Positions 5,281 through 63,421 of a DNA stretch of 64,000 nt are shown one piece after another. The stretch is taken from contig OZ024759.1 of assembly GCA_964016885.1 (NCBI GenBank), positions 25,854,001 through 25,918,000 on the forward strand. The letters are read 5' to 3'. The translations under genes and the position numbers were made by a program. The stretch's first letter is position 1, and every line of letters starts with the position of its first letter. The notes beneath the pieces were generated by a model, which worked only from the letters and a program-made list of their open reading frames with translations, did not search any database and was not told the origin of the DNA. The DNA comes from Eledone cirrhosa (lineage: Eukaryota).

Positions 5281-5625
5281 TAATATGAAGCATCTATATA
5301 TTATATTATATTCGACGGGATTTGATCCCAGAACGTTCTGACTCGGAGCTGAATGTGGAATGCTATTTAGTACAACTCGCTACCGTCTTTGCTAACAACT
5401 GTACAACAATAACGATATAAATTCGAAAACCTAACAATAAAGATAGAAATAATAGAAATGTTAAACAATGATGTAAAAACAAAACAAAATTATAAACAAA
5501 ATCAACATAAGTAAAATATACAAAAAGAAAAACTTCTGTCTTTTACTTTCGCTTTGTCTCTGCCTCTCTTGCGCATTCTCGGTCACTCCCGGGCTCTCAG
5601 CTTCACCCTATGACTGCTTCTATGT

Positions 5626-5671
<46 letters not shown>

Positions 5672-6446
5672 GTCCCTGGCCTGGCAGTGCTACCGAGGGG
5701 CTTTACCCGTTCGAGAAAGGCTCTACAGACACGGGCGCCCGGGTAGGGACCCCGCCAAAAAGATCTGTCCCAGATGCGTGTGCGACGAGGAAACCGTTGC
5801 ACACGCATTGGTACACTGCTCGGGCGTAGCCGATCTGTGGGGCTATGTCTAACAACTGCTGTCAAGGGTGGGACCGATCCGGTTGACCACCGAGTCTATT
5901 GTAATGATCAAGCCGCCTACCCCCTTCAAAGATGAAGCAGAGGCGGTGTTTCTGTGCGTAATAGCCATGGCGAAAGAGGTTGTATGGTGGACGCGTCTGA
6001 AAGGACTGAGGTCAGGCACCTTTCTCTCTGGCCAACAACTGGTCCGTTTCTTCCGATATCATTTCGGAAGAAGGATCAGGATGGAGAGAGAGGTGCTGCA
6101 CCCCAGCCGTTTCTATGAAAGATGGGTGAAAGTGGCGAGAATGGCCCGTGTGAATGGGCCTTCACTCTACATCAGACTATAGGTGAGGAAGATGAAAGAC
6201 CAAGGGAGCACCCCTTCTCTGTGCTCCTGAGGAGAAGGGTTGCACACTTTTTTCGGGGGTGTGTGCGACCCCCCAAGGCGCCTCCTCTCTATTGAGGATT
6301 TTGTTAAAAATTTTATTTTTTGTTATATCTTATTTTATTTTTATATTTTGTTATTGCCTCCTCCTTATTGAGGACGCCTTTTTGTGTAAACTCCCCCCTT
6401 TGTACTTGTCCCACTTTTGATGCCCTAGTGGCAAATAAAAGAAACA
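5672..6446 (+). mobile_element. 5'-truncated Tx1/L1-clade LINE 3' end (ORF2 C-terminal zinc-binding region plus 3' UTR) within (ATCT)n
   Basis: LAWQCYRGALPVRERL...CPRC...ETVAHALVHC resembles zf-RVT. The same frame continues past one stop (5850-5852) to 6182. T-rich 3' UTR ends AATAAAAGAAAC, with (TATC)n on both flanks. Confidence 0.8.
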
Positions 6447-17831: not shown

Positions 17832-18712
17832 CGAGGTGTGTCAGAAAAGTTCCAGGACTGATGTCACAAAAGATTTATTTCAAACCCAAACTTCACACTA
17901 AGAGTTTTCTCCTTCAAAGTAACCCCCCTGGAGTCTAATGCACTTTTCCATCCTTTTCTGCCACGATTCTTCCGGGATCCTCCGCTGTTCCGTCGTCACG
18001 GCCTTTTTGATGTCGTCCACGTCTTCAAAACGGGTCCCCTCCGGGTCGTACTCGAAGATCCATGACTTATCACCGGTGATGACTGTCCCTAGCAAGTCTG
18101 GTTCGCTTTCAAGACGCTCGAGGATGTCCTGGCACACTTGCATGCGTCGACCCGTCTGGTGATCGTTCAGCAGTTTTGGCACCATCTTCGCGCAGACCTT
18201 CCGCATGTCCAAATCTTCAGTGAGATTCTTCCAGACGCTGTCCCGATTCATGCCCAGCTCATTTGCCATCAGTCGAACAGTCAGCCGACGATCGCTACGC
18301 ACCATCTGCCTGACGCGATCAACGTTGACCTCAGTCCTGGTTGTTGAGGGCCTTCCGCTCCTGAGGTCATCTTCCACGTCATCGCGTCCTTTTTTTAAAC
18401 TTCTTGCACCACTCAAAAACACGTGAGCGTGATATCGTCTCATCTCTATACACTTGCTGCAGCAGAGTTTTCCCCAACCATACCAGAAACTTCAAGTTTG
18501 TTTGTTGCTCTGTGCTCATTGCTTGACGACCAGAAACAGAGGACATGTATATAAAATTATGAAGAAAAAAGTTTGATCGCTGCAGAGAGCTAAGATTACA
18601 GTTACATACTCCATGGGGGGGTTAGTTGGAAGGAGAAAACTCTTATTGTGAACTTTGGGTTTGAAATAAATCTTTTGTGACATCAGTCCTGGAACTTTTC
18701 TGACACACCTCG
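17832..18712 (-). mobile_element. Mariner (Tc1/mariner) DNA transposon, internally deleted and non-autonomous
   Basis: TIR cgaggtgtgtcagaaaagttccaggactgatgtcacaaaagatttatttcaaacccaaa: 59 bp perfect, ~66 bp with one mismatch. TA on both sides; transposase remnant inside. Confidence 0.95.
17898..18519 (-). pseudogene. Mariner transposase pseudogene (HTH domains retained, catalytic core deleted)
   Basis: MSTEQQTNLKFLV...SRSRVFEW (frameshift) ...RSGRPST...KVCAKMVPKLL...VITGDKSWIFEYDPE joined directly to GTRFEDVDD...WQKRMEKCIRLQGGYFEG. Confidence 0.9.
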
Positions 18713-22188: not shown

Positions 22189-22229
<41 letters not shown>

Positions 22230-22331
22230 AATGAAGTAATTCCATCGGAAAAGTCCAGGAAAAAAGAGTGCTCTATGTAGGCAACAGAGCTTAATTATTA
22301 TTATTATGTAATAAACAACATAAGGTAATTA

Positions 22332-22391
22332 TTCCATTTACCAGTGGTTTCTTAAAAGCAAAAGGTTTTGCTTTCAATCCTCAGAACGAAA
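22332..22391 (-). ncRNA. Type I hammerhead ribozyme (left arm of the palindrome)
   Basis: Mirror copy of 22462-22521. Confidence 0.75.
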
Positions 22392-22461
22392 AGATCCTGG
22401 TTTGTTTATTGAATTTGGATTACAAATTTGTAATCCAAATTCAATAAACAAACCAGGATTT

Positions 22462-22521
22462 TTTCGTTCTGAGGATTGAAAGCAAAACCTTTTGCTTTTA
22501 AGAAACCACTGGTAAATGGAA
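22462..22521 (+). ncRNA. Type I hammerhead ribozyme (right arm of the palindrome)
   Basis: Stem I tttcgtt/aatggaa; core CTGAGGA; stem II ttgaaagcaaa-acct-tttgcttttaa; GAAA; stem III cc-act-gg; GTA cleavage triplet ending at 22514. Confidence 0.75.
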
Positions 22522-22553
22522 TAATTACCTTATGTTGTTTATTACATAATAAT

Positions 22554-22651
<98 letters not shown>

Positions 22652-22675
22652 GTATATATATACATGTATATATAT

Positions 22676-22744
<69 letters not shown>

Positions 22745-22923
22745 CATGTATATATATATACATGTTTATATATACATATATATATATATGTATGTAGAAG
22801 TTCTATTTAAATTGTTGGGATACAACAAGCAAATATTTTTATAACGGATATAAAGCACTCAACAAATAATTGGAGTAAAAATACGATATTAACAAATGGA
22901 AACTATATTTATAAAACCATATT

Positions 22924-22988
22924 TATTTCATTATACATATTTCAAGGACACCAAGTTAAATTATGGTGTGCTTTCATCAGATAAAATA
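22924..22988 (-). ncRNA. Minimal type I hammerhead ribozyme (Penelope-type)
   Basis: Minus strand reads tattttat CTGATGA aagcacacca-taatttaact-tggtgtcctt GAAA t-atgt-a TA atgaaata. Stem I is 8 bp and the core is intact. Confidence 0.8.
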
Positions 22989-23059
22989 TAATATACAGCA
23001 GTTTTATAAATAAATATTAACATAACTTTAAAGAATGCGACCATTACTGTTATCAAGCT

Positions 23060-29130: not shown

Positions 29131-29280
29131 TATCTTATATGAAATAATACAGCCAATTTTCCACACAATACAATTAGTTAGCACCCGAACGTTTAATTAG
29201 GAATATACTCAGGTATTTCTTAATGTTTGTTAAGTGAGTTGGAATTTGGCCGGAGTATCGCTATTAGCTTTCTCCGATTA
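29131..29280 (+). repeat. ~150-bp dispersed repeat next to (TA)n (second copy ~42441-42590)
   Basis: Shared aataatac...gttagcacccgaa...ctaatgtttgtt(a/g)agtgag...ggagtat(c/t)gct...agctttctc. Confidence 0.7.
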
Positions 29281-29286
29281 TGTATT

Positions 29287-29322
<36 letters not shown>

Positions 29323-29324
<2 letters not shown>

Positions 29325-29516
29325 ACGAAGGAAGTGTGGTAAGGAACCAGATGGACCATAACGCACCAGCGTACTCAATACTTAGGATAGTAGAGTGGGT
29401 AATAGGAAAATGTTTAACCCCGACGGCAGAGCTCGAACCGTTTCGACGGCTATTTCTGGAGCCCAGAAATAGCCGTCGAAACGGCTTGAGCTCTGCCGTC
29501 GGGGTTAAACATTTTC

Positions 29517-29520
<4 letters not shown>
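29323..29520 (-). mobile_element. Fold-back element (family P): hammerhead 3' half, ~80-bp tail and an inverted copy
   Basis: Palindrome 29402-29520 (58-bp arms, two mismatches, 3-nt loop). The right arm reads hairpin-GAAAC-GGC-ttgagctct-GCC-GTC-gggg. The tail is shared with the 38641 and 39178 copies. Confidence 0.75.
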
Positions 29521-29603
<83 letters not shown>

Positions 29604-29833
29604 GAGAGAGAGAGAGAGAGAGATAGAGAAAGAGATAGATAGATAGATAGTTGGACATGGGATGAGAGAGAGATTGAAAGGGAGAAATAGACTAAAAAGT
29701 AAGATAATGCCGTCCATCATAAAGAAATTAATATTAAGATAGGATAGCCACATATGCATACATATACACATATAAAGACATACAACACATATCTAGACAT
29801 TCACATGTTTACATATATATACATGTTTCTATG

Positions 29834-38285: not shown

Positions 38286-38458
38286 TTGGCGGTAGAGAGT
38301 CGGACGCCATGCTTTCCAGTATAGTTACGTCCCTTTACGGTCTGAGTTCAAATCCCACCGAGGTTAACTTTGCCTTTCATCCGTACGGGGTCGATAAAAT
38401 AAAGTACCATTAATGTACTGGGTATTTGCTGGCCTTGTGCCAAAAGTAGAAACAATTA
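38286..38458 (+). mobile_element. tRNA-derived SINE (family A), flanked by minus-strand fragments (~38195-38270, ~38480-38595)
   Basis: Head, B-box gagttcaaatccc, family body and tail. Confidence 0.9.
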
Positions 38459-38598
38459 TATACAACAATAATATTAATAGTGGTTTCTACATTTGGTATA
38501 AGGCCTGTAATTTGAAGGGAAGGGAAAAGTCGACCAAATCGTCTCCAGTGCATTACTGGTGCTTTATTATATCGACCCCGGGATTTGAACTCATAACG

Positions 38599-38640
<42 letters not shown>

Positions 38641-38645
<5 letters not shown>

Positions 38646-38743
38646 AACCAGTAAATATTCCTATTACCCACTCTACTACCCCAAGTATTGAGTACTTTGG
38701 TGCGTTATGGTCCACCTGGTTCCTTACCACATTTCCTTCGTTA
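38641..38743 (+). mobile_element. Family P tail with a short terminal inversion (ataggaa...ttcctat) in (TA)n
   Basis: Reverse complement of 39178-39263 and 29323-29408. Confidence 0.8.
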
Positions 38744-38772
38744 TATATATATATATATATATATATAGTGAA

Positions 38773-38970
38773 GGCGTGTGGCTGAGTGGTTAGAGAATCG
38801 TACGGTTGTGAGTTCGATTCCTGGACCAGGCGATGCGTTATGTCCTTGAGCAAGACACTTTATTTCACGTTGTTCCTTCTACCTGGAGTTGCGACCGATA
38901 GATAGTATTAGCAATTGGAATGACCAACGGAAACATTGTTCCCTCGGTCCGATTTGACGAAAGTCGATCG
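38773..38970 (+). mobile_element. tRNA/CORE-like SINE head (family B) plus shared tail, second copy
   Basis: Matches 33431-33640. Confidence 0.8.
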
Positions 38971-39060: not shown

Positions 39061-39132
39061 ATAGAAAAAACGAGGAAGTTTCGTTTACATGTGAAAAATA
39101 TTTTCCATATGTAAACGAAACTTCCTCATTTT

Positions 39133-39138
<6 letters not shown>
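39061..39138. repeat. 78-bp palindrome with GTTTC-hairpin-GAAAC architecture
   Basis: atagaaaaaacgaggaagtttcgtttacatgtgaaaaat|attttccatatgtaaacgaaacttcctcattttttctat. Confidence 0.9.
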
Positions 39139-39177
<39 letters not shown>

Positions 39178-39180
<3 letters not shown>

Positions 39181-39381
39181 CGAAGGAAATGTGGTAAGGA
39201 ATCAGATTGACCATAACGCACCAAAGTACTCAATACTTAGGGTAGTAGAGTGGGTAATAGGAACGAGTAGGACCCCGACGGCTGAGCTCAAGCCGTTTCG
39301 ACGGCTACTTCTGGACTAAAATTTTAGTCCAGAATTAGCCGTCGAAAGGGCTTGAGCTCAGCCGTCGGGGTCCTACTCGTT

Positions 39382-61669: not shown

Positions 61670-62820
61670 TGCAACATTTTTGGAATGTTTTACATATTTT
61701 TACTGTTCAATTAATGGATTGTACTTGTAATTTCCTAACTAGTTGTGTTCTTTCTGTTCCTGTGAAGCCCAGCCTCTCAAGATTTGTATGATGCAGTTAC
61801 TAACATATCCCAGTGCCCCAATAATCACAGGCCTAAATCTGAAGGTATAATCAGGGTGGAGTATCTGCAGATTTCTCATCAGTTCTGCATAAATATTCTC
61901 CTTTTCGTTAATCTTAGATATTACATTAGCATTTGCTGGATAGCTAACTTCCACTACTGTGCATGCCTTCTTATCCCTGTCCCATATCATAATATCTGGT
62001 CTGTTATGCCTGCATTTTATTGCGGGTTTTACTGGAACATTCCACCAGTACTCTTTCATATTATGTATATGTATGTCTTCCACATTGCTGTAGCTTTTAA
62101 TGTGTTTATTAACGGGGCTATCTTTACTACAGATTGCATTGTACAGTGTTTGGCCACTACATTATGCTTCATAGGTAGATAGTACCGCGATGACATCTTT
62201 GGACACCTGCTTATGACATAGGTAACATCTTCGATGTTAATTCTGAAGAGTCTGCACTTGTTATCACATCTAGGTGTTTTGCCTGCATCCCTATCTCTTT
62301 GGTGAATCAGGTATTTCGTGTTGATTTCCTGTTCTTGGACTGCAAAAGCGTATCCTTCAAAGTGGGAGCCAATATAGCGGTTGTTGGTTCAAGATAGATT
62401 ACTTTCTTTATTTATATTACTCTCACTCTGGAGCTTCCTGGCAACATATCCATGCATGATTTTTTGCTGATAAACATGCAGTTGTTCATCCATGGATTCA
62501 CTGCGATACTGCTGAGCAACTTCCCTCGGTGTGAGTTTTTGATTATCACACAGGGAATACCTCCCGAGGAGTTCCTTCCCAACTCTCATGATCTTATCTG
62601 TTTCATGCAGATAGACTTGCTTTGAGGTTTGTAGATGTTGTCGGAGGGATAGGATGCGACATTCAAATGGTATCTGGACTGATGTTAGGCCTCTGCCTCC
62701 CTGCTTACGTTTGAAGTAAAGGCGGTCTATGTCACTGTTTATGTGGAAGATTCCGGTGTTGTTTAGTCTTTTTCGAGTTCTAACATCAATCGCTCGGAGT
62801 TCGTCTATCGTCCAATTGAG
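61670..62820 (-). mobile_element. 5'-truncated R4/Dong-like non-LTR retrotransposon (RT thumb, zinc knuckle, restriction-like endonuclease)
   Basis: DRLYFKRKQGGRGL, EGYAFAVQEQEI, CRL...EDVTYVISRCP, HNRPDIMIWD...VVEVSYP...KENIY...PVIIGALG; several stops and frameshifts. Confidence 0.88.
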
Positions 62821-62857
62821 TATTATGTATGTATGTATACATGTATGTATATATGTG

Positions 62858-62932
<75 letters not shown>

Positions 62933-63421
62933 AAAACAATCTTTTTCCTCTCTACTATTTTTTATATAAATCAACTCGTGTGTTACTTTTCTACATTCCA
63001 ACTCGTGTGTTACTTTTCTATATATATATATGTTAACATACATGTAAATGTATATGTACACATACATATTTATATGCATACTACATCATATAGATATGTA
63101 TACATGTATGAATGTGCATGCTTAAATATATATATATATTTATATGTATATAGAGAGAGAAAGAGGGAGAGAAAAAGAGGGAGAGAGATAAGCAGAATAT
63201 TTAGTTAATAAGTCAATCAATTATTTACTACGTTAATAAATAATGAGCCAATATGGCGGCTGTTAATGATTGTTGTATTTAAACTGTAAATACGAACTAT
63301 ATAATAAAGACCAGCACCATCTTTGTATCTGCTATTGGTGTCACGAGTACACACATGTGTCTATGTATGTGCATACAGACACACACACACACACACATAT
63401 ATTTGTAGAGACAGGAAAAGA

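Follow-up and report, generated by a model that had tools for sequence, protein, structure and literature searches.

The window analysed here, a 64,000-nucleotide stretch of the Eledone cirrhosa genome (assembly GCA_964016885.1, contig OZ024759.1, positions 25,854,001 to 25,918,000, forward strand), contains a palindrome at 22294–22559 in which two arms of 133 bp meet without a spacer between positions 22426 and 22427 (Table 1). The arms differ at a single pair of positions, G at 22393 and T at 22460; T is the family base at this site, so the changed base sits in the left arm. In RNA the pair would read as G·U on the + strand and as an A·C mismatch on the − strand. The first-pass annotation, made from the letters alone, had described spacerless 133-bp arms with one mismatch, a hammerhead in each arm pointing away from the axis, an extra left tail of about 70 bp and (TA)n abutting both ends, and this description stands in every part. 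The last few tail bases beside the (TA)n tract are possibly of non-element origin, and a target-site duplication is unreadable because both ends of the insertion lie in (TA)n. The palindrome is far beyond chance expectation: a scan of the window for non-simple exact palindromes with at least 15 bp per arm returned only one other, of 26 bp, half of it (AT)n. By eye, the first predicted hairpin of the tail (− strand) resembles one close to the 3′ end of the Hydra sequence whose entry directly precedes Hydra-1_Obim in the supplement of PMC8557442.

Table 1. Features of the palindromic insertion and its flanks (positions in the window).
Feature	Position	Strand	Remarks
(TA)n target tract, left flank	22192–22224		Seen in the sequence
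PLE tail, 69 nt, on the left arm only	22225–22293	−	Two hairpins predicted; aligns with the 3′ terminus of copy L031 of the element
Left (tailed) arm, 3′ end of a Hydra-clade PLE	22294–22426	−	5′-truncated 42 nt upstream of the hammerhead core
Type I hammerhead, left arm	22332–22391	−	Predicted cut after 22339
Sole arm mismatch	22393	+	Derived in the left arm
Head-to-head junction	22426–22427		Blunt, with neither microhomology nor insertion; the junction 24-mer is unique genome-wide
Right (tailless) arm, same 3′ end	22427–22559	+	Ends at a short TAA repeat, where the tail would start
Type I hammerhead, right arm	22462–22521	+	Predicted cut after 22514
(TA)n-rich tract, right flank	22558–22793		Also belongs to the 3′ end of an unrelated repeat that bears a hammerhead (22791–23051)

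A Hydra-clade Penelope-like element and its copies

The locus is, with near certainty, a stub inserted by a Penelope-like element (PLE) of the Hydra clade; the last 133 and last 202 bases of the element stand head to head in (TA)n. The arm matches a repeat family at 97–100% identity (40 of 633 candidates scored), and the locus is 99% identical to other copies of this family. In one of them, L031, the arm is the 3′-terminal part of a 4.2-kb unit, in which an upstream direct pLTR copy, one ORF and a microsatellite-rich 3′ region precede it. The proposal that the palindrome is a PLE insertion with an inverted 5′-truncated copy and a one-sided tail is upheld.

The reading frame of L031 is interrupted by a frameshift; another copy, L151, possesses an open frame of 710 aa encoding reverse transcriptase followed by a GIY-YIG-like endonuclease, the single-ORF arrangement of endonuclease-bearing PLEs. 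The start of this ORF was found 148 times in the genome. The element protein carries the reverse transcriptase motifs DxxDFYPS, MGS and YRDD and a nuclease region of the form Y-x-YxGxT / RxxxH. It also contains RWK, DKT, a CxCX5C linker, CxxC and CxH, whereas the CCHH cysteines are absent and no Cys lies between the GIY- and YIG-like words, which corresponds to the Hydra-clade motif definition in section 11 of PMC8557442. Other PLE features are likewise present, namely pLTRs in direct or inverted order, a tail at one end and a hammerhead within the pLTR, and nearly all listed arm ends enter (TA)n, the target of the Hydra clade. Atlas neighbours of the protein at 0.96–0.97 include clusters in which 58% of members carry GIY-YIG and 92% RVT_1, and 1613 relatives were found at E 1e-20 among 8000 scored candidates. 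No name for the element protein came from Pfam, NCBIfam or PDB, whether searched by sequence or by profile.

The nearest named family is Hydra-1_Obim from Octopus bimaculoides (Craig et al. 2021, PMC8557442), with which our protein aligns along its length in a by-eye comparison with the supplement sequence. The motifs listed above and the GIY-YIG-like C-terminus lacking CCHH are common to both and to the Hydra clade, as are the (TA)n target, the canonical 3′ hammerhead and a near-identical palindromic helix III. The two families are nevertheless distinct: the core 15-mer is absent from the supplement of PMC8557442, the tail measures 69 nt against 30–40 in the Hydra clade, and our family has direct pLTR copies. 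Hydra elements tend to be shorter than 3 kb, and the L031 unit reaches about 4.2 kb because of its microsatellite-rich 3′ region with a second, diverged hammerhead. Judged by sequence, the family is a new Hydra-clade member with a longer tail and a longer unit.

The second hammerhead of L031 (2380–2500, − strand) is 87% identical and lies about 360 nt after the stop codon, some 1.4 kb from the terminal one, with microsatellite-rich DNA between them. A full L031 RNA would contain both on the same strand, an arrangement in which dimer cleavage could be possible.

The core 15-mer occurs 2810 times in the 3.0-Gb genome (control words 0 and 1 times). Head-to-head core pairs number 188 at gaps of 0–69 nt, 180 at 70–100 nt and 61 at 101–200 nt; at least 429 pairs thus lie within 200 nt, comprising 31% of the 2810 cores, where 0.13 pairs would be expected by chance. 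A joint inside or close to the ribozyme was found in at least 190 further pairs, and in many of these the ribozyme is disrupted; this count takes in sister families. The locus is therefore ordinary for the Eledone cirrhosa genome, contrary to the rarity that the first-pass annotation implied. The subfamily of the locus alone accounts for 19 such pairs, whose centres differ, and this variation, together with the unique junction at the locus, indicates that each palindrome is a separate insertion. A secondary rearrangement is seen at L107/L108 (G000:C1:3570738-3571165), where a short palindrome has been interrupted and duplicated in inverted orientation.

The insertion had also been called young, and the data agree, with one mismatch in 133 positions and 99% identity to other copies. 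Arms with 0 or 1 mismatch occur in 50 of 69 pairs, and the locus is typical in this respect. In octopus a distance of 0.09 has been equated with 25 million years (PMC13282606); at this rate, which is possibly inapplicable here, one mismatch corresponds to about 1 million years (range 0.03–6). Gene conversion between the arms would bias the estimate downward.

Hammerhead motifs and predicted RNA folds

The + strand hammerhead consists of a 7-bp stem I (22462–22468/22515–22521), the core CUGAGGA (22469–22475), an 11-bp stem II with a 4-nt loop (22476–22501), GAAA (22502–22505) and a 3-bp helix III with a 3-nt loop (22505–22513), with cleavage predicted after A22514; the − strand motif is its identical mirror copy. 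All elements of a type I hammerhead are thus present, i.e. a core of the form CUGANGA, GAAA, UH and three helices. The G10.1–C11.1 pair is replaced by U–A in 269 of 275 fetched copies, and the Hydra-1_Obim row of PMC8557442 likewise lacks G–C at the base of stem II. Rfam matched no hammerhead at the locus and none among the 150 of 628 window matches listed; its miRNA matches were dismissed as hairpin or microsatellite noise. Folding of the isolated 60-mer is no better than that of shuffled sequences (z −0.94). Across the 275 fetched copies common stem I variants preserve pairing and loop II is the most variable part; the stems show one-sided changes only, with no two-sided covariation found, and conservation of the core in this set is inherent in the search pattern.

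Metazoan PLE hammerheads (Cervera and de la Peña 2014, PMC4209133) resemble ours in type I topology, a long helix II and a short palindromic helix III suited to dimers. In contrast, the motif described here has U–A rather than G–C at 10.1–11.1, an 11-bp helix II and no Rfam match. According to that work, the short palindromic helix III requires a second copy, and a single hammerhead motif gave no cleavage.

The first-pass annotation proposed that RNA from either strand could adopt the long duplex or the ribozyme as two mutually exclusive folds. The predicted energies do not support such a switch. For full-length RNA of either strand the long duplex is predicted at −215.5 kcal/mol and the best folds with the hammerhead enforced at −122.8 and −124.7 kcal/mol, an advantage of about 91–93 kcal/mol for the duplex on both strands. 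Moreover, the antisense arm is made before the ribozyme whichever strand is transcribed, and each strand carries one sense hammerhead. The isolated ribozyme is predicted to reach its active fold with a probability of about 1%, while pairing of the helix III segment with a second copy is predicted at −8.2 kcal/mol. Duplex dominance, the rare monomer fold and the dimer-type helix III together suggest that both hammerheads are most likely silent in the palindrome RNA. We regard them as passengers carried along with the 3′ end of the element; within read-through RNA, a 133-bp duplex is predicted to trap them. Non-cleavage of an isolated arm would be a weak test of this annotation, since on published evidence even a genuine PLE hammerhead is expected to cleave little or not at all as a monomer.

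If the locus is transcribed, the predicted 133-bp duplex is a plausible ADAR or Dicer substrate. Among the sequencing runs listed as matching, no RNA run was present. At the scale of the genome, transcribed stubs would add hundreds of self-contained hairpins to the pool of double-stranded RNA. Hyper-editing has been linked to palindromic repeats and lizard Penelope copies (PMC5625713), and by analogy editing of stub RNA is plausible.

Pair structure across the family and a proposed origin of the palindrome

The pairs inspected comprise 82 short ones (83 rows), another 21 short ones and 24 long ones; the 82 are the first-listed loci, mostly from contigs 1–4, and are weighted to the 70–100 nt gap class. 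Exactly one tail is present in 79 of the 83 rows, the remaining four having an interrupted arm; two loci of the collection, L052 and L053, share flanks and probably represent one event. The same holds for the further sets (10/10, 14/14, of which 3 had been counted before, and 19/19) and for 23 of 23 typed long pairs, and no two-tailed or tailless pair was found among the typed short and long pairs.

The two arms of a pair agree at subfamily sites in 62/62, 57/57 and 80/80 typed pairs, and in 66/69, against 34.6 expected. One polymorphic column shows no concordance (60/69, with 60.6 expected), probably reflecting indel shifts, and in L195, L196 and L197, which were picked for this trait, the arms differ at a diagnostic site. 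Gene conversion could be an alternative source of the likeness between arms.

Either arm can be the longer one. In 80 short pairs the tailed arm is longer in 25 and the tailless arm in 29, with 26 equal; among the 24 long pairs, whose arm lengths were taken from BLAST tables, the tailless arm is longer by more than 200 nt in 8 and the tailed arm is longer in 8, while 4 are symmetric and 4 unclear. The excess of the tailless arm reaches 3.9 kb. At the same time arm lengths are correlated: they fall within 5 nt of each other in 60 of 82 pairs (permutation mean 38%, maximum 52.5%), and 4 of 20 typed long pairs are symmetric (p about 0.001), although within the 70–100 class alone the correlation is weak (rho 0.28, p 0.053). 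This symmetry is stronger than independent truncation predicts and is compatible with fold-back too. One of the symmetric long pairs is a 5-kb palindrome of the element at 99.3% identity (L137, 360–5366), with one tailed and one tailless end.

The 82 junctions comprise 35 with microhomology, 7 blunt ones, 23 with 1–5 added bases and 17 with insertions of at least 6 nt, 9 of the latter copied from the arms. The mix resembles polymerase-theta-type joining. Arms frequently end in a U-rich tract 43–44 nt upstream of the core (57 of 164 ends), and both arms of the locus end at 42. In four junctions (L194, L195, L223 and L227) pieces of the 5′ leader or ORF start are captured, which lie 3′ of the tail in a transcript running from pLTR into ORF; two of the four extend exactly to the tail end.

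Three other accounts of these ends were set aside. That the ribozyme's own cut produces the 5′ ends was rejected because no peak stands at the cut site, where the 15-nt gap class holds 11 pairs and no pile-up; sister families enter part of these counts, so the densities are only roughly comparable. A splice acceptor at the stop hot spot was rejected because AG is found in one subfamily only. A third start site at a defined 23-nt piece of the ORF start was dropped as well: two junctions contain the piece, but among the 30 of 148 ORF-start loci examined the captures had other lengths.

Two minor regularities were observed at the junctions. Captures in L194, L195, L223, L225 and L227 stop 2–40 nt past the start-codon motif, and their ends may mark the 3′ end or the protein-bound part of the template RNA. 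A non-templated CTAG stands at the axis in L055, L067, L080, L082, L091 and L124, which belong to several subfamilies and have differing stop points, and many other short junction insertions begin with C; such additions may reflect a terminal-addition preference of the reverse transcriptase.

We hypothesize that the palindrome probably arose through priming from two sides on a single uncut RNA, after which the ends were joined. The RT-GIY-YIG protein, probably dimeric, would cleave both strands of (TA)n, and both free 3′ ends would prime reverse transcription within one uncleaved RNA, one from the distal tail boundary and the other from where the tail begins, both sites being AT-rich. Synthesis of both cDNAs would end prematurely, at this locus 42 nt upstream of the core in the U-rich tract, a frequent stop site; host end joining would then link the two cDNA ends, and second-strand synthesis would fix the palindrome. 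The one-tail rule, the variants shared between arms, the freedom of either arm to be longer and the RNA captured from beyond the tail favor this scheme over self-priming. Arm symmetry would follow under the assumption that two enzymes are coupled on one RNA.

Several steps have a precedent in the Poseidon PLE of Anolis carolinensis studied in vitro (Frangieh et al. 2024, PMC11167929), where both strands are cut and extended, two internal start sites bound the tail, ribozyme cleavage is dispensable and a dimer is predicted. The proposed scheme resembles that system in its two tail-bounding starts, the extension of both strands, the dispensable ribozyme and the AT-rich target. However, Poseidon belongs to another clade, and PMC11167929 models neither an inverted product nor a fixed pairing of start sites. 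In that work start sites did not differ between the two strands, and a strict one-tail rule therefore needs the extra assumption of two active sites on one RNA.

Self-priming is the rival with the best standing, although we consider it unlikely. Here an antisense transcript or the first cDNA would fold onto itself and serve as its own template, after which the endonuclease would trim the tail of one arm. Junction palindromes of rotifer PLEs have been read in this way (PMC3846280), the one-sided tail has been ascribed to endonuclease resolution (PMC8557442), and the near-symmetric arms, far above chance, and the variants common to both arms are in keeping with it. However, a tailless arm that exceeds the tailed one, as found in 8 of the 24 long pairs, cannot have been copied from a tailed first strand, and a tail cannot come from a tailless template strand, so that fold-back is viable only if trimming takes a random arm and yet always exactly one. 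Blunt junctions without a loop (7 of 82, including the locus) and the 17 longer insertions also speak against it, and the captured pieces that lie 3′ of the tail are indicative of template jumps on sense RNA.

It is highly improbable that the palindrome is itself a non-autonomous mobile unit, MITE-like or retrozyme-like, which spreads whole. Certain junction sequences do recur among copies, but the recurring centres fall on short self-complementary words or in several subfamilies, the locus junction is unique, and the 19 subfamily pairs show no fixed internal sequence of the kind an amplified MITE-like unit would have. Pairs instead form a continuum from gaps of about 20 nt to the 5-kb palindrome. 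Animal non-LTR retrozymes (bioRxiv 10.64898/2026.07.22.740005) are similarly protein-free and PLE-derived and bear type I hammerheads. They are, however, head-to-tail tandem arrays with at least two same-strand ribozymes, whereas the locus is an inverted pair with one hammerhead per strand and no tandem monomers and, unlike retrozymes, matches the end of an autonomous PLE at 99% identity.

We give very little credence to a selected regulatory device, in which the host would keep the duplex and ribozyme as a switch. Both hammerheads are intact, and the paired stem I variants and variable loop II would suit such a role, yet intactness follows from youth, the duplex leads by about 90 kcal/mol, many of the joints in or near the ribozyme break it, and a scan of the translations, a weak test, recognised no host exon in the window. 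A fold-back read or assembly chimera has next to no probability: no listed record crosses the axis and no joint was returned in 4 of 12 listed runs (reduced-representation reads and short contigs, unlikely to show the junction, in which the family is abundant), but the flanks are not mirrored, the tail and a private change sit on one arm, and the same asymmetric design is repeated hundreds of times with varied junctions.

In LINE-1 twin priming, too, two target-primed cDNAs from both sides of the cut are joined as an inversion. There the second primer has an internal start and the two cDNAs are non-overlapping, whereas the two copies proposed here begin at the 3′ end, and its duplication produces a palindrome. 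Extending two-sided priming from the locus to the lineage, we incline, on balance, to the following generalization: in Hydra PLEs a dimer at a double-strand cut would use two fixed starts on one uncleaved RNA that runs into the ORF, leaving exactly one tail, and U-tract stops would make the present family a factory of hundreds of near-perfect hairpins of 130–500 bp, a supply of double-stranded RNA on which editing in this lineage could draw.

Inverted truncated copies, one-sided tails and (TA)n targeting are already in print, as are opposite-strand hammerhead pairs 100–700 bp apart, described in Schistosoma mansoni (PMC4209133). Inverted tailed PLE insertions (PMC8557442, fig. 2; PMC3846280) are like ours in the inverted 5′-truncated copy, the tail at one end, the palindromic junction and the AT-rich target. 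They differ in that both copies here are reduced to the last 133–202 nt, and in that the one-tail rule and arm lengths have been counted over more than 100 pairs. In searches of the openly accessible literature, we found no statement of a strict one-tail rule or of a two-sided PLE model. The family data thus bear on how inverted one-tailed PLE insertions form, an open question according to PMC8557442, and on insertion steps later than those covered by the results in PMC11167929. They give sharp in vitro predictions, for which L151 offers a natural open frame.

The window holds further repeats. Adjoining the tract on the right of the palindrome is another repeat family without relation to the first, represented by its 3′ end (22791–23051, − strand; 1694 candidates, 97–98% identical) and with a type I hammerhead of its own at about 22924–22988, predicted to cut after 22932. 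Several copies of this repeat are accompanied by inverted ones, and a Hydra-like ORF start lies close to one of the fetched loci. Remnants at 17900–18620, 61740–62960 and 5510–6180 are presumably a Tc1/mariner transposase-like sequence and two LINE-type sequences. A short repeat beside (TA)n tracts at about 29230–29620, 38410–38860 and 39090–39320, which also flanks some of the fetched loci, is possibly another PLE-type stub.
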